This document shows positions 3,558 to 16,728 of a DNA stretch of 64,000 bases, in pieces. A program made the translations under genes and the position numbers. Position 1 is the first letter of the stretch, and each line of letters starts with the position of its first letter. This DNA is from an uncultured Chloroflexia bacterium (GTDB lineage: Bacteria > Chloroflexota > Dehalococcoidia > DSTF01 > JALHUB01), in contig CAVXOY010000018.1 in the NCBI GenBank assembly GCA_963763495.1, positions 16,592 through 80,591 on the forward strand, given 5' to 3'. The notes beneath the pieces are model-generated. The model did no database searches. It was not told the DNA's origin and saw nothing but the letters and a program-made list of their open reading frames with translations.

Positions 3558-4302
3558 ATGACTATCATGCGTAAACAGATTGCAGTTCTCTCGATAGCGG
3601 GCCTGCTCGTGCTGGGCCTTCTGAGCGCCGCCTGCGAAGGGGACAAGGTGACCGTCGCCAACCAGCAGGCCGAGTCGCTGGGAATCACCGTCAGCGGCGA
3701 AGGCAAGGTCTCCGGCGCGCCCGACGTGGCCGTCCTCACCCTCGGGGTCTCCGCCCTCGCGCCCTCGGTCAAAGACGCGCGCGACCAGGCGGCCACGGCC
3801 ATGAAGGGCGTCACCGACTCCATCAAGGGCAACGGCGTGGACGAGAAAGACATCCAGAGCAGCCAGTACAGCATCTACCCCGAGTACGACTACCGCAACG
3901 ACACGCAGGAGCTGCGCGGCTATCGGGTGACCAACATCGCCACCGTCAAGATCCGTGACATCGACAACACCAGCAAGATAATCGACGATGCTGCTGCCGC
4001 CGGCGGCGACCTCACCCAGGTGCAGGGCATCAACTTCACCATCGACGACCCCGACGAGCTTCGCGACGAGGCCCGCGAGGAGGCGGTGAAGGACGCGAAG
4101 GCGAAGGCGGAGCGCCTGGCCGAACTGGCCGGTGTGAAGCTTGGGCAACCCCATCTCCATCCGTGAGTACACCAGCTCGCCGCCGGTCGCCTACCGGGAC
4201 GTCGGCATGGGGGGCGATATGGAGGCCGCGCCCTCCACTCCCATCGAGCCGGGCGAGTTGGAGGTGATACTGAGCGTCGACGTCATCTACGCCATCGAGT
4301 AG
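3558..4302 (+). CDS. SIMPL/DUF541-family lipoprotein, frame broken once near 4148
   Basis: GAAGGAG lies just upstream of ATG 3558. Lipoprotein signal ...LLVLGLLSAAC. The body ITVSGEGKVSGAPDVAVLTLGV...AKAKAERLAELAGVKLGQP is typical of SIMPL. The last ~50 aa (ISIREYTSSPP...VDVIYAIE*) read in another frame through to TAG 4300-4302. Confidence 0.7.
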
Positions 4303-4372
4303 CGGGGCGTTGTCGCAAGTCATGCCCTAGGTGGGGCTAGGCGACGACTTTCCTGGATAGTTGAACACAACT

Positions 4373-4395
4373 GGCGACCCCCACTGGGGGTCGCC
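4373..4395. terminator. GC-rich hairpin (10-bp stem, 3-nt loop) after the SIMPL gene; no U-tract
   Basis: GGCGACCCCC-ACT-GGGGGTCGCC. Candidate factor-independent terminator of the kind seen in high-GC genomes. Confidence 0.4.
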
Positions 4396-4405
4396 GACAC
4401 AAAGA

Positions 4406-4433
4406 TTGACAAGCGGGCAGGCAGTGGTATAAT
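4406..4433 (+). promoter_or_regulatory. sigma-70-type promoter for the YVTN-repeat gene
   Basis: TTGACA (4406-4411), 16-nt spacer, TATAAT (4428-4433), with TGG immediately upstream giving an extended -10. Confidence 0.6.
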
Positions 4434-4499
4434 CGCCTCCACTGACAGCTCGCTGCTGATTATTACCCGCTCATTGACGTTCTCGCCAACAGGGAGGTT

Positions 4500-6497
4500 G
4501 TGCGATGCGGTTGGTGCTGTCCTCGATTTGCGCTTCTCATGCTCGTGGCTGGCGCCTCGATTGCCGGTAACGGGCCAGCGGCGGCCGCCCAGCCCACGGT
4601 GATTGCCACCGTCCAGATAGGGTTTGGCGGGCACTACCCCCGGTGGATCGCCGCCAACCCTTCCACAAACCGCATCTACGTGACCAACGATAGAAGCCAC
4701 AATGTTTCGGTGATTGACGGCGCGAGCAACGCCATCGTGGCCACGGTCCCGGTTGGCAACCCGAATGGCGTTGCCGCTAATCCCACCACGAACCGCATCT
4801 ACGTGGCTGGCGGTGGCGGTGTATCAGTCATGGACGGCGTTTCGAACACCGTCACGGCGACTGTGCCCGTAGGCTCCGGTCCCCAGGGCGTTGCGGTCAA
4901 CCCCATTACCAACCGCATCTACGTAGCGAACTGGGAAAGCGACAACGTGTCGGTGATTGACGGGATCAGCAACGCCGTCGTGGCCACTGTGTCCGTGGGC
5001 AACTCCCCCGACGGCGTTGCCGGTAATCCCACGACCAACCGCATCTATGTGACAAACGAGAACGGCAACAATGTATCGGTGATCGACGGCGCAACCAACG
5101 CCGTCGTGGCCACCGTGGCCGTAGGCACCTCTCCCGAGGGCATCGCCGCTAATCCTACGACGAACCGCGTCTACGTGGCGAACTGGACGAGCAACAACGT
5201 GTCAGTGATCGATGGGACCAGTAACACCGTCGTGACCAGCGTGCCTAGTGCCTACAATGTCTACGGCGTTGCCGTAAACCACGTCACCAATCGCATCTAC
5301 GTGAGCAACGCAGTGAGCAGCGTCTTGGTGATCGACGGCTCCACCAACGCTGTCGTGGCCACCATTCCCCTGGCGAGCCAGTTGCAGGGCGTTGTGGCCA
5401 ACCCTTCAACCAACCGCATCTACGTAGTTCAACCCGACATCAGCGACGTCTCGGTGATCGACGGGGTCACGAACAACCTAGTGGCTACGGTGTCCGTTGG
5501 CAACGACTGTATGGGGAGTTGCCGCCAACCCCGCCACCGACCGCATCTACGTGGCCAACTGGTGGAGCGCCGACGTGTCGGTGATCGACGGGGCGACCGA
5601 CAGCGTAGTAGCCACCGTGCCTGTGGATCGGTTCGCCTCGGGTATTGGCGCTAACCCTACAACGAACCGCATCTACGTGGCAGGGCTTAGCGTGTCGGTG
5701 ATCGACGGGTCCACCAACAACGTGGTTGCCACCGTGCCCGGAGGCGGCCGAGAAGTAGCCGTCAACCCGGCAACGAACCTGATCTACGTGACGAACTCGG
5801 TTGGTGTATCGGTGATCGACGGCGCAACCAACGCCGTCGTGACCACCGTGGCCCTAGGCGACTCTCCCAGGGCGTTGCCGTCAACCCCAGCACCAACCGC
5901 ATCTACGTGGCCAACGAGAACGGCAACAATGTATCGGTGATCGACGGGGCAACCAACAATGTGGTGGCCACGGTCCCGGTAGGCTACTATCCGAGCAGCG
6001 TTGCTGCCAACCCCACCACCAACCGCATCTACGTAGCCCACGATATGCACAATAGCGTATCGGTGATCGACGGCCATACGAACGCCCTCGTGACCACCGT
6101 GGCCCTAGTAGACTCTCCCCAGGGCGTTGCCGTCAACCCAGCAACGAACCGCATCTACGTGGCCAACTACGACAACAATAGCGTGTCGGTCATCGACGGA
6201 GTTAGCAACGCTGTAGTGGCCACCACCCCTGTCGGCAACGGGCCTAGAGGTGTTGCCGTTGTCGCCGCAACCAACCGCGCCTACGTGGCCAACTCTGTGG
6301 GCGACACGGTGTCGGTGATTCCCTATCCCCCACCGCCAGTGGGCGGAGTCGCCGAGTATCCACAGCTTGAACCTCAATCCATCCTCACTGAGCAGACGCG
6401 CGCAGCCACCAAATCCTTTGCCATCGTTGCCGTGGCCGGTGGAGTCCTCCTACTTGTGGCTAGCGCGTGGTATGCCAGGAAACACTGGTTAGCCTAA
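4500..6497 (+). CDS. secreted, C-terminally membrane-anchored YVTN-family beta-propeller repeat protein (14 blades), frame broken twice (~5510, ~5867)
   Basis: Three ORF-track pieces: 4500-5654, 5497-5940 and 5907-6497. Signal peptide LLMLVAGASIAGNGPAAAA. There are 14 repeats of the pattern NPxTNRIYVAN..SNNVSVIDG.TN.VVATVPVG..P.GVA. C-terminus: PPPPVGG...FAIVAVAGGVLLLVASAWYARKHW. Confidence 0.8.
4660..6300 (+). repeat. tandem ~120-126-bp coding repeats (YVTN blades) with long near-identical DNA stretches
   Basis: Recurring strings AACCGCATCTACGTGGC and GTGTCGGTGATCGACGG. The stretches 5838-5886 and 6089-6130 are almost identical. Confidence 0.85.
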
Positions 6498-6851
6498 CTC
6501 TCACGACTTGTCAGACGCACCGGGACCCCGTACAATCCGGTCGTCAGATGTCACGCGGGCAAGACCGCAGGATTCGTCCTCGCAGAGCGCCATCTGCCTG
6601 CCGTCCGGGACCCTTCCCTCAGATTCGGCGAACAGCGCCGCTTAGGGTTGACTCTTGGCATCAGAGCGGGATACGATTAGAATCTCAGGGCGCCGCGGTG
6701 TTCGCGCAGCGCCGAGGATCATCAGGAAAAGATGGAAAGCGACGAAGACGGCGATCAACGCCGTCACAGCCAAGAAACCGAGGGAGGCGCTCCGCTTCAG
6801 ATGAGCCGCTGACGCGTGTTTTCGTGTCGCCGCGGCTCTCCTCTGCGGCGG

Positions 6852-6892
6852 ACCACCTCCCGAACAGCCATAGCTTGGGGAGGTGGTTTTTT
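6852..6892 (+). terminator. intrinsic-terminator-like hairpin plus U6 that also sequesters the SD of the downstream gene (candidate attenuator or riboswitch expression platform)
   Basis: ACCACCTCCC (6852-6861) pairs with GGGAGGTGGT (6878-6887) around a 16-nt loop. It is followed by TTTTTT (6887-6892) and then ATG 6893. The GGAGG Shine-Dalgarno lies in the 3' arm. Confidence 0.6.
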
Positions 6893-8128
6893 ATGCCTTT
6901 CCTCAGCCAGCTCTTGGGTCGTCCCGTCCTCGACCTTGAGGGGACCCGTGTCGCGATCCTCCGCGACCTGCTTGTCCCGATGGACGTCCCCTATCCGCCT
7001 GTACTCACTGTCGCCGTCGCCACCCGCGGGCGTCTGCACGCCGTCCCCTGGAGCCGCGTCGCCTCCGTGACGCCGCGCGGCACCGCTCTCGGCCACCGCA
7101 TCGACCTTGACGCCCTTCCCGAGCCGGGGGAAGACCTTATCTGGCTCGGCCGCGATCTGCTGGACAAGCAGATCGTCGATACTCACGGCGTCAAGCTCGT
7201 CCGCGTGAACGACATCTCGCTCACCCCCATCAACGGTGACCTCCGCCTGGCGGGCGTTGACAGCTCCATCGCCGGTCTCTTTCGCCGTCTGGGACTGGAG
7301 TGGGTGACCCGCGCCGCCCGCTGCTACCGACCCCGCCTCATCGACTGGCAGGAGGTCGACGTCGGCCCCGCCGTCGACGAGGTGCGTCTCAAGGTGCCCT
7401 TCGACCGCCTGCGCGCCATGCGCCCCGCTGACATCGGCGCCATCATAAGCCAGATGTCCCCCGGCGAGGCTGCCGACGTTCTGGAGGTGCTCGACGACAA
7501 GACAGCCGCCGACGCCCTGGCCGAGCTCTCCGACGAGCACCAGGCCGCCGTCCTCACCGCTATGGATCTGGATGAGGCCGCCGACGTTCTCGACCAGATG
7601 CCGCCCGACGAGGCCGCCGACGTGCTGGGCGACGTCCAGGAGGTGCGCGCCGGTGAGTTGATGAGACTGATGGCGCCCCATGCCGCCAAAGAGGTGCGAT
7701 CGCTTCTCGCCTATGAAGAGGACGAGGCGGGTGGACTGATGAACAGCCGTCTCGTCGCCGTCCTGGAGACAGACACTGCCGACGAGGTAATCACCGTCCT
7801 CCGGCGCATCGCTCCCCCGGAGGACGAGAGCTACTACCTCTACGTCGTCGACAGCGCCAACCGCCTTCGCGGCGTCATCTCCCTCCGCGACCTCATCATC
7901 GCCCAGCCGGACGCGCCCGTCGCCAGCTTCATGCAGCGCGACATCGCCTCCGTGCGTCTGGACGACTCCAAGGAAGAGGTGGCGCGCAAGCTCATCCGCT
8001 ACGACCTTCTCGCCATTCCCGTGACGGACGAGGACGGCGACCTCAAGGGCGTCGTGACCGTCAACGACGTTCTCGATCTTGTGACCCCGCGCTCTTGGCA
8101 GAACCGGCCGCGTCGAATGACAGGATGA
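6893..8128 (+). CDS. soluble PRC-barrel + MgtE N-terminal domain + CBS-pair protein (MgtE cytosolic module without the membrane pore)
   Basis: In-frame ATG inside ORF 6467-8128 with SD GGAGG. Acidic helical repeats EAADVLEVLDDKTAADALAELSDEH...DEAADVLDQMPPDEAADVL. CBS pair LLAYEEDEAGGLMNSR...YLYVVDSANRLRGVISLRDL...LLAIPVTDEDGDLKGVVTVNDVLDLV. No hydrophobic C-terminal domain is present. Confidence 0.85.
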   Translation: MPFLSQLLGRPVLDLEGTRVAILRDLLVPMDVPYPPVLTVAVATRGRLHAVPWSRVASVTPRGTALGHRIDLDALPEPGEDLIWLGRDLLDKQIVDTHGVKLVRVNDISLTPINGDLRLAGVDSSIAGLFRRLGLEWVTRAARCYRPRLIDWQEVDVGPAVDEVRLKVPFDRLRAMRPADIGAIISQMSPGEAADVLEVLDDKTAADALAELSDEHQAAVLTAMDLDEAADVLDQMPPDEAADVLGDVQEVRAGELMRLMAPHAAKEVRSLLAYEEDEAGGLMNSRLVAVLETDTADEVITVLRRIAPPEDESYYLYVVDSANRLRGVISLRDLIIAQPDAPVASFMQRDIASVRLDDSKEEVARKLIRYDLLAIPVTDEDGDLKGVVTVNDVLDLVTPRSWQNRPRRMTG

Positions 8129-8131
8129 ACG

Positions 8132-9433
8132 ATGGCAGAAGAAGTCGAGCGCGATGCCTCTGTGAAGGGCGGCGCCGGGCTCCGCCTCGGCATCCTAACT
8201 CGGCTTAGCCTCTTCCTGGCCGTCATGGGCCCCGGCCTGATCACCGGCATCGTCGACGACGACCCGACAGGGATCGCCGGCTACTCCATCGCCGGCGCCC
8301 GCTTCGGCTACAGCTTCCTGTGGGCCATCGTCCTCTGCGTCTTCGCCCTCGCCATCATCGCCGAGATGGCCGCCCGCCTCGGCGCCATCACCGGCAGGGG
8401 CCTCGCCGACATGATCCGCGAACGCTTTGGCGTGCGCATAACCACCCTGGCGATGCTTGTTCTTCTCGTGGCGAACGCGACCACTACGGTTGCTGAGTTC
8501 GCCGGTGTCGCCGGCGCCTCTGAGATATTCGGTGTCTCAAAGTACCTTACTGTTCCCCTTGCGGCGGCGCTGGTTCTCGGTGTCGTCATCCTCGGCTCCT
8601 ATCATCACGTGGAGAAAGTGCTGCTGTTGGGCTCGCTCGTCTTCGTCGCCTACATCATCACCGGCTTCCTGGCGAAGCCCGATTGGGGGCAAGTGGCCAC
8701 CCATTCCGTCGTTCCCAGCTTCCATTTCTCCTTGCCCTATCTCACCGTGCTCATCGGCGTCATCGGCACTACCATCACGCCCTGGCAGCAGTTCTATCTC
8801 CAGTCCGGCGTCGTCGACAAGGGCTTGGGAGAGCGCGAGTACCGGCTTGTCCGCTGGGATGTCTATGCCGGCGCCTTCGCCTGCACGCTCGTCGCCTTCT
8901 TCATTATTGTTACGACGGCGGCGACGCTTCATGCCAACGGCGAGCCGGCGGAGACCGTGACCGACGTCGGCCGGGCCCTCCATCCCCTGGCCGGCGACTT
9001 CGCGGCCAATCTCTTCGCCATCGGCCTGCTCAACGCCTCCCTGCTGGCCGCCGCCGTCTTGCCCCTCAGCACCGCCTACGCCGTGTGCGGCGCCTTCGGC
9101 TGGGAGCGCAGCGTCAGCCGGCGTCTCCGCGAGGCCCCCGCCTTCTTCGGCCTCTTCGCCGGACTGATCGTCGTCGGCGCGGCGGCGGTTCTGATTCCCG
9201 GCCTGCCCCTACTGACCCTCCTCTTTATCCCCAACGTCGTCGGCGGCATCCTCCTGCCCGTCATCCTTGTCCTGATGCTGAAGCTTGTCAACGACCGCCG
9301 CATCATGGGTCGCTGGGTCAACTCCTCCCGTCAGAATGCCGTGGCCTGGGTTACGACGATAGTCATGGTCGCGCTGGCCGCCGTCTACGCCTTGATCGCC
9401 CTCCTCCAGCTAGCGGGCATCGTCAACGCCTGA
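8132..9433 (+). CDS. Nramp/SLC11-family transporter with a non-canonical (NRMT-like) metal-binding motif
   Basis: 433-aa polytopic protein. The TM1 motif reads DDDPTGIAGY where canonical Nramp has DPGN. The TM6 motif reads GVIGTTITPWQQFYLQS where canonical Nramp has G-A-x-x-M-P-H. It starts 3 nt after the upstream stop. Confidence 0.85.
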   Translation: MAEEVERDASVKGGAGLRLGILTRLSLFLAVMGPGLITGIVDDDPTGIAGYSIAGARFGYSFLWAIVLCVFALAIIAEMAARLGAITGRGLADMIRERFGVRITTLAMLVLLVANATTTVAEFAGVAGASEIFGVSKYLTVPLAAALVLGVVILGSYHHVEKVLLLGSLVFVAYIITGFLAKPDWGQVATHSVVPSFHFSLPYLTVLIGVIGTTITPWQQFYLQSGVVDKGLGEREYRLVRWDVYAGAFACTLVAFFIIVTTAATLHANGEPAETVTDVGRALHPLAGDFAANLFAIGLLNASLLAAAVLPLSTAYAVCGAFGWERSVSRRLREAPAFFGLFAGLIVVGAAAVLIPGLPLLTLLFIPNVVGGILLPVILVLMLKLVNDRRIMGRWVNSSRQNAVAWVTTIVMVALAAVYALIALLQLAGIVNA

Positions 9434-9603
9434 CATCGAAGGGTGCCGGCAACGGATCAGATGCGCCGATGAAGCACGTTGCCCGAACATGTGATATGCT
9501 CAACGGTTGGCTTGTCTTGAGGGCCGTGATAGGACTGACTCCACCGCGAGCTTGTTGGGGTGCTGTCCGGCGGCATCCTCCTAGAAACACCGCCTGACCT
9601 GAT

Positions 9604-10372
9604 ATGTCGGAACACTTGGAACTAATCGCTCTTAGGCTTCTCCGCCAGCCTCGCCGCTGGCCTTGCCTCCGGACTGGGGGCGCTGCCCGCCATCTTCATG
9701 ACGCGGGCCTCGGACAAGTTGATGGACGGCCTGCTCGGGTTCGCCGCCGGGGTCATGCTTGCTGTCACCCTGTTCGGCTTGCTCATCCCCGCCATCGACG
9801 AAGGCGGCATATGGGTAACGATGTTCGGGCTGGTGGTGGGTGTAGCCGTCCTGGTCTTCATGGACAACTTCGCGCCTCACCCTCACTTCATCCTGGGAGC
9901 GAACGACGTCCCCAACAGCTCTCCCGCCCGCTTGCGCCGGATCCGGCTGCTGCTCTTGGCGATAACCATCCATAACCTCCCCGAAGGTTTCGCCGTCGGC
10001 GTTGCCTTTGGCACCGAAAACATCGATGCCGGGCTCATCCTTGCCCTCGGCATCGGGCTTCAGAACCTGCCCGAGGGGCTGGCCGTCGCATTGCCGATGG
10101 TTAGAGAGGGTTACAGTTCACGACGAGGCATAGGCTATGCGACCCTCAGCGGCCTGGTGGAGCCGCTAGCAGGACTCATCGGCGTTTCCCTGGTCGTCCT
10201 CCTCACCCCTCTGCTTCCCTTCGCGCTCGCCTTCGCTGCCGGCGCCATGCTCTACGTGCTCGTCGACGAGATCATCCCCGAAAGCCATCGGCGCGGCCAC
10301 GACAACGCTGCCACCATGGGCACGCTCGCGGGCTTTGGGCTCATGCTGGTCTTGGAGCGTCTGTTTTCCTGA
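9604..10372 (+). CDS. ZIP-family divalent metal transporter (ZupT/GufA-like), probable frame break near 9625-9632
   Basis: ORF 9698-10372 carries ITIHNLPEGFAVGVAF and GLQNLPEGLAVALP motifs. The same frame stays open to 9626 (…LLASLAAGLASGLGALPAIF) with no start codon. ATG 9604 (MSEHLELIAL) sits in another frame. Confidence 0.8.
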
Positions 10373-10470: not shown

Positions 10471-12154
10471 ATGCCGAAGTACATATTCGTCACAGGCGGG
10501 GTAGTCAGCTCCGTCGGCAAAGGGATAGCAACGGCGGCTATCGGCCGCATCCTCAAGAGCCGCAACATCTCTGTCTCCATCCAGAAACTCGACCCCTACC
10601 TCAACGTTGACCCCGGCACCATGTCGCCTTACCAGCACGGCGAAGTATTCGTCACCAGCGACGGTGCGGAGACTGACCTCGACCTGGGACACTACGAGCG
10701 CTTCATCGATGAGGACCTCACCGGCCTCAGTTCCGTGACCACCGGTCAGATATACCAGGCCGTCATCCAGAAAGAGCGGCGGGGCGATTTCCTGGGTGGT
10801 ACCATCCAGGCGATCCCCCACATCACCGGCGAGATCAAGAACCGCATCCGTGACGTGGCCCGGGCCAGCGGCAGCGATGTCATCATCGTCGAGGTCGGCG
10901 GCACCGTAGGCGACATCGAAGGCCAGCCCTTCCTGGAGGCGATCCGTCAGATGCGCAACGAGGAGGGAAGGGAGAACCTGCTCGCCATCCACGTAACCCT
11001 CCTCCCCTACATCGGCTCCACCGGCGAGATCAAGACCAAGCCCACTCAGCACAGCGTCCGCGAGTTGCGCAGCGTCGGTATCCAGCCCGACGTCATCGTC
11101 TGTCGCAGCGACTACGCGATGACGTCAGGAGACCAAGGACAAGATCGCCCTCTTCTGCGACGTCGAGAAGCGGGCTGTCGTCCCTCTCCGTACCATGTCC
11201 AGCATCTATCAGGTGCCCCTCGTCCTCGAAGAGGCCGGTCTGGGCGATCTGATCATCGAGCGCCTCGGCCTTCCCGCCGGCTCCCGCGACCTGCGCGGCT
11301 GGCGTGAGTTGGTGGACCGCCTTCTCCATCCAAGCGGCAGGGTGGTTGTGGCCATCGCCGGCAAATACGTGGAACTGCCCGACGCCTACCTCTCCGTCAA
11401 AGAGTCCCTCATCCATGCCGGCATCCATCATGACGTAGCGGTGGACATCGAATGGGTTCACTCCCAGATACTGGAGGAGCCGGACGGCGAGGCGATCCTC
11501 CAGCGTGTCCACGGTATCATCGTGCCGGGTGGCTTCGGCGAGCGCGGCATCGAAGGCAAGATTAGGGCTGCTCGCTTTGCCCGCGAGCAAGAGGTACCGT
11601 ACCTGGGCCTGTGCCTGGGGATGCAGGTAATGGTCGTTGAAGCGGCCCGCTTGGCCTTTGGTGACGACACCGCCAACTCCACCGAGTTTGCACCCGATAC
11701 CCCCTATCCCGTCATAAGCCTCCTCGAAGAACAGCGCGGCGTCTGCGAGATGGGCGGCACGATGCGCCTGGGCAGCTACCCCTGCCGTCTTGTCCCGGGC
11801 ACCCGCGCCCATCAGGCCTACGGTGTGGAGGAGGTCAGGGAGCGTCACCGTCACCGCTACGAGTTCAACAAGGCCTTCGAAGAGCCCCTGGCCGGGGTCG
11901 GTCTGATCGCCAGCGGCCTCTCTCCTGATGGCTCGCTGGTCGAGATCTGTGAGATGCAGGACCATCCCTTCATGGTCGGCACTCAGTTCCACCCCGAGTT
12001 TCGCTCTCGCCCCGACCGCCCCCATCCCCTCTTCCGGGACTTCATAGCGGCGGCCAAGGCAAGAGCTCTCGGGGAAGCGTCTTCGCCCGCCTATTCGCGG
12101 TCGGAAAGCGATATCGCTGCTCCCGCCGCCCACGGTGATACTCACGGCCAGTGA
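10471..12154 (+). CDS. pyrG: CTP synthase, frame broken once near 11118-11125
   Basis: Two ORF pieces, 10471-11307 and 11195-12154. N-terminus [19 protein letters not shown]. Glutamine amidotransferase domain with GLCLGMQ and the HRHRYEFN motif. Confidence 0.93.
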
Positions 12155-16543: not shown

Positions 16544-16728
16544 CGGCAGTATAGCATGCGACCCCGCCTTCAGTCAGCTACTTGCTGAGGCTCCAGGCCG
16601 ATGATCAGCAGCGTAATGATCATTGCGCTCATCCTTTTAGCGCCCAGACGTTTCCTGAGGTATAATTGGGGCGTCTGCAATTGCCGCAGAGGTTGTGACA
16701 ACCCATGCTTTACCGCGTTTAGGACAGT

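Follow-up and report, generated by a model that had tools for sequence, protein, structure and literature searches.

How can a transporter come to be encoded directly behind the cytosolic, Mg2+-sensing part of a channel of unrelated fold, and what would the two do together? The question is raised by two adjacent genes in a 64,000-nucleotide stretch of DNA from an uncultured Chloroflexia bacterium (GTDB lineage Chloroflexota; Dehalococcoidia; DSTF01; JALHUB01), which corresponds to positions 16,592 to 80,591 of contig CAVXOY010000018.1 (GenBank assembly GCA_963763495.1) and is referred to as the window. The first gene (6893–8128, plus strand) encodes a soluble protein of 411 amino acids related to the cytosolic domain of MgtE, hereafter the partner, and the second (8132–9433, plus strand) encodes a transporter of 433 amino acids from the clade of Nramp-related Mg2+ transporters (NRMTs) within the SLC11 family. 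The locus is best explained as a single transcription unit (6648–9433) in which a promoter and a regulatory leader precede the genes for a cytosolic sensor subunit and an NRMT-type transporter, in that order. The gene-family assignments taken alone are near-certain. The combined account, in which the partner would gate the transporter and the leader would add Mg2+ control by way of a small open reading frame (ORF), is given an even chance of being correct.

A Pore-Less MgtE Module behind Tandem PRC Barrels

The two coding sequences share strand and frame (ORF list and sequence) and lie, with the expected content, where the original prediction, made from the letters of the sequence, had placed them; all motifs that it quoted were found. 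The ATG at 6893 is preceded by GGGGAGGTGG and a T-run, and the TGA stop codon of the partner gene (8126–8128) is followed by ACG and then by the ATG of the transporter gene at 8132, a gap of three nucleotides. Both proteins are intact, as their lengths match those of dozens of homologues. The intactness of the gene pair is noteworthy given that other genes in the window are broken.

The partner is a pore-less protein in which two PRC barrels precede the entire cytosolic, Mg2+-sensing part of MgtE, an assignment that is near-certain. Pfam profiles identified MgtE_N at amino acids 176–277 (E = 8.5e-24; helical domain at 7418–7723), two CBS domains (E = 1.8e-19; 7739–8086) and a PRC barrel (PF05239, 25.5 bits with a cut-off of 21.2). 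No Pfam match to the MgtE pore domain (PF01769) was found in the 411 amino acids, and the C-terminus lies only 11 residues beyond the CBS pair. The motifs PGEAADVL, LDEAADVL and PDEAADVL and the end GVVTVNDVLDLV are all present. The NCBIfam model for mgtE (TIGR00400) aligned only over positions 27–252 of 450 and scored 156 bits with a cut-off of 233. The possibility that the partner is itself an MgtE channel was rejected based on the missing PF01769 match and this sub-cut-off score, which leave the cytosolic module only. A sequence search of the PDB returned the cytosolic domain of Thermus thermophilus MgtE (2YVY, E = 7e-43, amino acids 169–400), and an AlphaFold2 model of the whole partner (mean predicted local distance difference test score, pLDDT, 81.9) matches the folds of 2YVY, 5X9G and 2ZY9 at E values of ~1e-20.

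The tandem PRC barrels occupy amino acids 1–66 and 85–151 (6893–7345). An AlphaFold2 model of amino acids 1–166 (pLDDT 84.7, predicted template modelling score 0.79) contains two small barrels, and its best fold matches in the PDB are the tandem-PRC proteins CdpB1/CdpB2 (8qzo, E = 5e-4, template modelling score ~0.5), followed by the H subunits of photosynthetic reaction centres, MTH1859 and RimM. The PRC, MgtE_N and CBS profiles matched each of the 57 partner homologues that were scanned (57/57). The overall architecture is therefore PRC-PRC-MgtE_N-CBS-CBS with a short tail (PRSWQNRPRRMTG); this basic, Trp-containing C-terminal tail recurs in many, but not all, lineages among 58 family members. 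A profile hidden Markov model check of 6893–8128 for PRC, MgtE_N and CBS and for the absence of the MgtE transmembrane (TM) domain had been proposed together with the original prediction of a soluble MgtE module carrying PRC segments, and Pfam, the 2YVY match and the modelled barrels bear that prediction out. The PRC module appears to have gone unremarked in the literature: no paper that combines PRC-barrel, MgtE and CBS came up in a full-text search.

Mg2+- and ATP-binding residues were assigned by aligning the partner to 2YVY/2YVX and using the Mg2+ sites of Maruyama et al. 2018 (PMC5882242). In T. thermophilus MgtE (TtMgtE) the Mg4 site is formed by D91 and D247, Mg5 by D226 and D250, Mg6 by D95 and Mg7 by E59, and the corresponding residues of the partner are D239 and D392, D371 and D395, D243, and D207, respectively. 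Every Mg4–Mg7 acidic ligand tested thus remains acidic, with D207, D239 and D243 located in the MgtE_N domain and D371, D392 and D395 in the CBS pair. Among 58 partner proteins from many phyla an Asp is found at the equivalents of D91, D95 and D247 in 47, 56 and 47 proteins, respectively, and the equivalent of D226 is poorly conserved. The pore site Mg1 has no counterpart. Within the ATP site, Y170, R187 and D188 of TtMgtE are kept as Y315, R332 and D333, N203 is replaced by Q348, and the adenine-stacking F227 is replaced by L372; a Leu occupies this position in 37 out of 58 family members. The F227A mutation abolishes ATP binding by TtMgtE (Tomita et al. 2017). Judged from these residues, Mg2+ sensing by the partner is plausible and ATP sensing is doubtful, the latter because the adenine-stacking Phe227 is replaced by Leu372. 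The original prediction had proposed a Mg2+/ATP-sensing gate, and its ATP half needs correction to that extent.

The Transporter Belongs to the NRMT Clade

The transporter matches the Nramp profile PF01566 over positions 1–356 of 357 (Pfam, E = 1.9e-91). Its top PDB sequence match is EleNRMT (7QIA, E = 1.3e-105, 357 bits), gap-free over amino acids 25–422, whereas the best MntH structure scored E = 4.4e-23 and 85 bits (DraNramp, 4e-23), and the NCBIfam MntH model gave 138 bits, below its cut-off of 430. Using the residue roles of Ramanadane et al. 2022 (PMC8806188) and a numbering offset of 11 between EleNRMT and the window, the acidic residues D55 and E133 of EleNRMT are kept as D44 and E122. 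In TM1 (VDDDPTGIAGY) G47 corresponds to G58 and stands in place of the canonical Asn. In TM6 (IGTTITPW) T213 corresponds to T224, which replaces Ala and is required for Mg2+ transport in EleNRMT, and T216 corresponds to A227 at the canonical Met position, the Met being absent. The two positions of the proton-pathway His residues in helix 6b are occupied by W218 (EleNRMT W229) and L223 (EleNRMT N234), and on helix 10 the conserved Q379, a residue that matters for transport, is conservatively changed to N368.

A total of 80 NRMT loci were surveyed on contigs chosen as one genome per species (loci and contigs are given by our L numbers). The commonest signature among them is DAGG / TTIAPW / Q, and Gln occupies the helix-10 position in 69 out of 80 loci; Asn368 is common to the window and its Chloroflexota relatives. 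The combination DxTG / TTITPW / N was found in the window and only in the Chloroflexota relatives L001 and L002, and four loci from Chloroflexia and Ktedonobacteria (L003, L011, L037 and L068) carry DATG and Asn as in the window but TTIAPW. Because the search pattern included the TM6 motif, the uniformity of this motif across the loci carries no independent weight; the pattern did not contain the residues of TM1 and helix 10.

These sequence comparisons make membership of the transporter in the NRMT clade near-certain; T216 and N368 are its two local departures. The clade assignment made in the original prediction is thereby upheld, by E values of 1.3e-105 for EleNRMT and ~1e-22 for MntH and by the D44/G47/T213 site, and the sequence search places the transporter far closer to EleNRMT than to canonical MntH. 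EleNRMT takes up Mg2+ and Mn2+ without proton coupling (PMC8806188). The main physiological substrate in the window is likely to be Mg2+ as judged from the residues of the site. The predicted Mg2+ uptake system holds to that extent: the substrate is likely, not proven, and a partnered NrmT from A. capsulatum acted on Mn2+ (see below).

The Gene Pair Recurs across Bacteria and Archaea

At each surveyed locus every ORF was scored against the three parts of the partner, and 76 out of 80 loci contained enough upstream sequence to be informative. A full PRC+MgtE_N+CBS gene lies directly upstream and on the same strand in 58 out of 76 loci (two of them cut by contig ends); in one further locus the partner gene lies directly downstream and in another 3 kb upstream. 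The paired loci belong to the Chloroflexota, Bacillota, Omnitrophota, Nitrospirota, Acidobacteriota, Syntrophales, Planctomycetota and Zixibacteria among others, and to the archaeal Methanocellaceae and Methanobacterium. Stop-to-start gaps are small and a 4-nt overlap is frequent, although gap sizes are approximate because the choice of start codon favoured the nearest start. In a reverse survey a Nramp gene follows the partner gene in five out of six homologues looked up. The recurrent pairing is strong evidence for a functional unit, and the adjacency that the original prediction expected to find in other genomes is borne out. None of the outcomes named beforehand as refuting that prediction was observed.

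Two further observations concern genes that stand alone. A Chloroflexi metagenome-assembled genome (MAG) contains a PRC-MgtE_N-CBS gene (L179, 3001–4248, protein P0106) with no adjacent Nramp gene, followed by proS on the opposite strand, and the partner family can thus occur as an orphan. The NRMT genes of L003, L011, L037 and L068 have no partner within 6 kb; in this sister group the partner seems to have been lost or never acquired.

The pairing itself is not new. Shin et al. 2014 (PMC4072509) described that most NrmT genes adjoin a gene for MgtE's N-terminal cytoplasmic domain, and speculated that the neighbour provides cytoplasmic feedback regulation or chaperone activity. The statement in the original prediction that no characterization of such a partnership was known needs correction accordingly, since that study reported the pair and tested one co-expression. 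Full-text literature searches returned nothing later on the function of the partner. The EleNRMT paper leaves the partner gene unmentioned and refers to MgtE just as another Mg2+ transport protein (PMC8806188), and neither a 2026 preprint on BfraNramp nor the 2022 review by Cellier names MgtE. The gene pair in the window is an ordinary, further member of the family reported in 2014, whose partner has had an unsolved role since. The present analysis adds the tandem PRC barrels, the Mg4–Mg7 ligands, the Phe-to-Leu replacement at the ATP site, the finding that a neighbouring ZIP gene falls outside the conserved unit, and the leader.

A Conserved Leader with Two Predicted, Mutually Exclusive Structures

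The leader is the most original element of the locus. A gap of 395 nt separates the upstream gene from the ATG at 6893 and contains a promoter-like site at 6648–6677 (plus strand; −35 box TTGACT, 18-nt spacer, −10 box TACGAT; consensus scan), of which the GGGTTGAC box is conserved in relatives. It is followed by a conserved 5′ leader of ~208 nt (6685–6892, plus strand) that was identified with nhmmer and alignments and belongs to no Rfam family. Conservation extends from the −35 box to the ATG among relatives whose partner proteins are only 68–86% identical, and the sequence upstream of the promoter is unalignable among the same relatives. An Rfam search of the whole window at the gathering score returned no leader family. 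A known riboswitch was rejected as well: at E ≤ 10 the region 6300–7100 gave only chance-level matches and none to the M-box (RF00380). The folding z-score of the leader is −3.2.

A pattern scan of metagenomes yielded 90 contigs, of which ~40 contain true leaders according to nhmmer, the remainder being chance matches. Wherever the contig extends far enough, a full-length copy is followed directly by the partner gene. A second copy that might indicate a regulon was not found in the window with nhmmer. A covariance model of the aptamer-like core (R1) found no credible copy among the 80 genome loci beyond L001 and the window itself, and nhmmer additionally recovered the leader of L041. The restriction of the leader to one clade limits the power to detect covariation.

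Three structural elements were identified in addition to a long-range pairing. Hairpin H2 (6747–6765; GACGGCG, loop AUCAA, CGCCGUC) lies inside the small ORF and was supported by RNAalifold and pair counts, with a compensatory GC-to-AU change. Hairpin H5 (6829–6849; GCCGCGG and CUGCGGC) is paired in 97.9% of cells across 27 leaders. The third element is a terminator-like hairpin (6852–6892, 99.3% of cells paired) that would sequester the ribosome-binding site (RBS): an anti-Shine–Dalgarno (anti-SD) segment ACCACCUCCC, a loop, the Shine–Dalgarno (SD) sequence GGGGAGGUGG at 6877–6886 and a U6 tract that abuts the ATG at 6893. A terminator scan left this hairpin uncalled since its loop exceeds the 8-nt limit of the scan, and it was read from the sequence and the alignments. 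Further upstream, a pseudo-SD (GGGAGGCGCUCCGC, 6782–6795, codons 17–21 of the small ORF) is complementary to GCGGACCACCUCCC (6848–6861) at 12 out of 14 positions and is the candidate 5′ arm of an antiterminator; its 3′ arm overlaps the 3′ arm of H5, and the pairing excludes the terminator hairpin. The anti-SD base beside CCUCC covaries with both alternative partners: with the SD (230/248) it forms CG 17 times and UA 7 times, and with the upstream pseudo-SD (124/230) GC 10 times and AU 9 times, a computed result that involves few lineages. For transcripts ending before the SD, the minimum free energy structure pairs the anti-SD with the pseudo-SD in eight out of nine representative leaders, including that of the distant L041.

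Distant leaders (L002, ~750–800, and L041, 4307–4528) also end in an anti-SD:RBS hairpin before the ATG, which in L002 is formed by UUCGCCUCC and GGAGGCGAA. Based on these terminal hairpins the expression platform may be older than the recognizable leader sequence. Furthermore, L081 (3548–3697, minus strand) and L082 contain an ORF of 42–49 amino acids that matches PF01769, encoded on the opposite strand ~100 nt upstream of the leader start and ~300 nt before the partner gene (the L081 relative is 81% identical). This ORF may be a remnant of a full-length mgtE and has no counterpart in the window.

A Small Acidic ORF and Its Possible Relation to Mg2+ Control

The small ORF (6732–6812, plus strand; MESDEDGDQRRHSQETEGGAPLQMSR) opens at an invariant ATGGA box at 6732 and comprises 26 codons and a TGA stop codon (6810–6812). 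In 27 distinct leaders it measures 23–27 codons from the conserved ATG, its N-terminus ME[STA]D[ED][DG]GD is kept (MDADPSGDRS in the distant L041), TGA, TAG and TAA replace one another as its stop codon at a single site, and three 3-nt indels among the leaders keep the frame. In the window the peptide begins with MESDEDGD, in which four out of six residues after the Met are Asp or Glu and the others are Ser or Gly. Ribosomes drop off when the N-terminus of the peptide abounds in small residues and in Asp, Glu or Pro, and low Mg2+ enhances the effect (Chadani et al.). MgtL (MEPDPT...) uses this low-Mg2+ drop-off to control mgtA, and corL-corA is similar.

Of 22 other loci scanned with Rfam, 8 have an M-box immediately before the orthologous operon or gene, among them the partnered loci L019, L027, L028, L031 and L071 and the partner-less loci L011 and L068, two Chloroflexota NRMTs with the closest site signature to the window. 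A MAG of Pelosinus (L019) contains two tandem M-boxes (3986–4163 and 4304–4475) upstream of its partner-NRMT operon. The simplest reading is that this clade swapped the M-box for an attenuator based on an upstream ORF (uORF) that responds to Mg2+, and the leader probably turns the operon on at low Mg2+.

Proposed Mechanism and Alternative Explanations

We infer that the partner binds the transporter and gates it in response to cytosolic Mg2+. It would dock onto the transporter from the cytoplasmic side, with the PRC barrels and the basic C-terminal tail that contains Trp as the probable contacts; once cytosolic Mg2+ occupied the acidic sites between MgtE_N and CBS, the module would close and uptake would be inhibited. 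An unrelated LeuT-fold carrier would in this way gain the feedback gate that MgtE has within a single chain. The leader would add Mg2+ control through the translated small ORF with its acidic N-terminus (MESDEDGD). At low Mg2+, ribosomes would abort or stall early, the pseudo-SD would pair with the anti-SD as an antiterminator and the RBS would be open. At high Mg2+, ribosomes would read through and strip the antiterminator, and the anti-SD:SD hairpin with its U-tract would form and end transcription and/or block translation. A more specific joint reading holds that the leader represents an undescribed class of Mg2+-responsive attenuators in Dehalococcoidia-like Chloroflexota, in which an acidic peptide senses Mg2+ through ribosome destabilization and functionally replaces the M-box, and that the PRC barrels are the docking module of a separate sensor subunit; it is tentative and, in our judgement, would sooner fail than hold.

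Several results weigh against gating of a Mg2+ transporter by the partner. No partner was found within 6 kb in 13 out of 76 loci and one partner homologue has no adjoining Nramp gene; no counterpart exists for Mg2 and Mg3, the sites of the plug helix through which MgtE couples sensing to its pore; the metal site departs from that of EleNRMT at two positions (A227 to T216 and Q379 to N368); and EleNRMT is active alone in liposomes (PMC8806188), from which it follows that the partner is not needed for transport. In addition, rescue did not improve when the A. capsulatum pair was co-expressed, and this species' NrmT acted as a transporter of Mn2+ (Shin et al. 2014; PMC4072509). The pair could serve mainly Mn2+ or broad divalent-metal uptake, with the partner responding to Mn2+ or another signal, and we regard this as unlikely. 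The A. capsulatum NrmT, which is partnered and lacks an M-box, restored a Mn2+-transport mutant in full and a Mg2+ mutant only in part (PMC4072509), EleNRMT carries Mn2+ too (PMC8806188), Rfam found no M-box in the window, and T216 and N368 stand where Ala and Gln are expected. A Mn2+ system is, however, at odds with the presence of T213, the residue needed for Mg2+ in EleNRMT, with the M-box control of the nearest signature relatives (L011 and L068), with the conserved Mg2+-site ligands of the partner and with the acidic leader peptide, which suits a Mg2+-dependent sensor of ribosome destabilization; nor did Rfam find the Mn2+ riboswitch yybP-ykoY in the window or, at E ≤ 10, in 6300–7100. 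Equally unlikely in our view is that the partner is merely co-expressed and acts as a cytosolic metal buffer, a chaperone or another regulator and not as a gate. Its dispensability for transport, the orphan gene for P0106 and the NRMT genes without a partner fit such a role, and chaperone activity is the alternative named by Shin et al. 2014 (PMC4072509). It is countered by the tight same-strand adjacency with overlapping or nearly overlapping stop and start codons in dozens of phyla, which suggests matched stoichiometry and a complex, and by the module being exactly the pore-gating part of MgtE. Known PRC barrels, moreover, dock onto other proteins (the reaction-centre H subunit on the L/M subunits, CdpB on its partner). 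That the adjacency is a chance or lineage-specific arrangement without function is practically refuted by the survey: partner-less loci exist and nothing else speaks for it, whereas the same order and strand occur in 58 out of 76 loci from bacteria and archaea, and Shin et al. 2014 found the same association independently (PMC4072509).

For the leader, the attenuator reading is weakened by the fairly narrow clade from which all leaders come, in which the covariation amounts to few independent events, and by the thermodynamic stability of the terminator, which in full-length RNA greatly exceeds that of the antiterminator and would require a kinetic switch. In addition, the antiterminator arm would be covered only marginally by a ribosome that pauses on the stop codon of the small ORF. 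An alternative is that the leader is a direct ligand-binding riboswitch, for Mg2+ or another ligand, or is controlled by a protein, and that the small ORF is incidental; we consider this improbable, if somewhat less so than the two alternatives for the partner. It draws on the several conserved hairpins with compensatory changes, those in H2 overriding the amino acid sequence of the small ORF at the RNA level, on the M-box RNAs found at the same position in other lineages, and on the GC content of 63%, at which open frames as long as 26 codons are no rarity. The small ORF nevertheless has an invariant ATG with a purine-rich stretch upstream, an acidic N-terminal motif that is kept even in L041, stop codons that interchange at one site and three independent indels of 3 nt that preserve the frame, and it contains the antiterminator arm, all of which favour a translated ORF over an incidental one.

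Gating of the transporter by the partner, if it occurs, would show that a module for sensing Mg2+ is transferable, as a subunit of its own, from one transporter fold to an unrelated one; the conserved PRC barrels and retained Mg4–Mg7 ligands provide concrete targets for mutagenesis. The novelty lies more in the leader than in the gene pair: if the small acidic ORF senses Mg2+ via ribosome stability, the MgtL principle reaches well past the enterobacteria, and the M-box and a uORF attenuator would have converged on the same operon.

Neighbouring Genes and Assembly Errors

A ZIP/ZupT-like gene (9604–10372, plus strand; Pfam Zip, NCBIfam ZupT) lies outside the conserved unit. It starts with an ATG at 9604, ~170 nt downstream of the transporter gene as originally predicted, but near 9629 it contains one extra nucleotide compared with contig L096 (95% identical), in which the gene is intact and encodes 255 amino acids. 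The N-terminus (MSEHLELIA...) is consequently out of frame, and the longest clean ORF runs from 9698 and lacks TM1. The ZIP gene is present in L096 and absent in the relatives L083–L085, where pyrG directly follows the transporter gene. A role of the ZIP protein in the system was rejected based on this absence and the frameshift, and the small divalent-cation locus that had been proposed is not conserved. The spacer between the transporter and ZIP genes (9434–9603, 170 nt) is conserved with L096 at least as well as the ZIP coding sequence; it gave no Rfam match and may contain promoter or operator sequences of the ZIP gene.

The pyrG gene (CTP synthase, 10471–12154) changes frame at 11121–11126 relative to the single gene for 560 amino acids in L083. 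Upstream of the leader, 4500–6497 encodes YVTN/NHL-like beta-propeller repeats ('NRIYVAN...VSVIDG' units) in three overlapping ORFs in different frames (4500–5654, 5497–5940 and 5907–6497) and is probably one gene broken by indels. Because the ZIP, pyrG and repeat-protein genes are all frame-broken, the frameshifts in the window are probably indel errors of the assembly and not true pseudogenes.

Comparison with Known Systems

The operons described by Shin et al. 2014 (PMC4072509) share with the window both gene families, their order, their common strand and their tight linkage, and led to the same hypothesis of cytoplasmic feedback on a Nramp-related Mg2+ transporter. They differ in that many of the published operons have an M-box, whereas the window has a different leader outside Rfam. 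The partner in the window also differs from the published MgtE fragment in that its first ~150 residues form two PRC barrels, a family-wide feature.

Relative to the MgtE cytosolic domain of T. thermophilus (2YVY, 2YVX and 5X9G), the partner shows ~41% identity over ~230 residues covering MgtE_N and the CBS pair, with conservation of the Mg4–Mg7 acidic ligands and of the Tyr, Arg and Asp that contact ATP. Unlike MgtE, it lacks the plug helix, the 5-TM pore and sites Mg1–Mg3, has Leu for the adenine-stacking Phe227, and carries the additional N-terminal tandem PRC module and basic, Trp-containing C-terminal tail. The transporter is 46% identical to EleNRMT of Eggerthella lenta (7QIA), gap-free over ~400 residues. 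Both share the D, G, T and W at sites that separate NRMTs from Mn2+/Fe2+ Nramps, and both lack the proton-pathway histidines of helix 6b. They differ at the Met position (Ala in EleNRMT, T216 in the window), in TM1 (DAGG and DPTG, respectively, with Thr before Gly in the window) and on helix 10 (Gln379 and Asn368); the EleNRMT study considered no partner protein (PMC8806188).

The M-box (ykoK, RF00380) occupies the same position before orthologous NRMT operons and both leaders would be expected to be off at high Mg2+, yet the leader in the window matches it in neither sequence nor structure, even at E ≤ 10, and holds a conserved ORF. A further parallel is offered by mgtL-mgtA and corL-corA, in which a small leader ORF of a Mg2+ importer likewise starts with Asp or Glu and small residues (MEPDPT in MgtL, MESDEDGD in the window), and in which ribosome progress sets mutually exclusive RNA structures, as is predicted for the window. 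These systems belong to the enterobacteria, a different phylum, and share no sequence homology with the leader described here, whose peptide contains no prolines. They also rely on a Rho-dependent terminator, in contrast to the window, where an intrinsic-terminator-like hairpin would bury the RBS.

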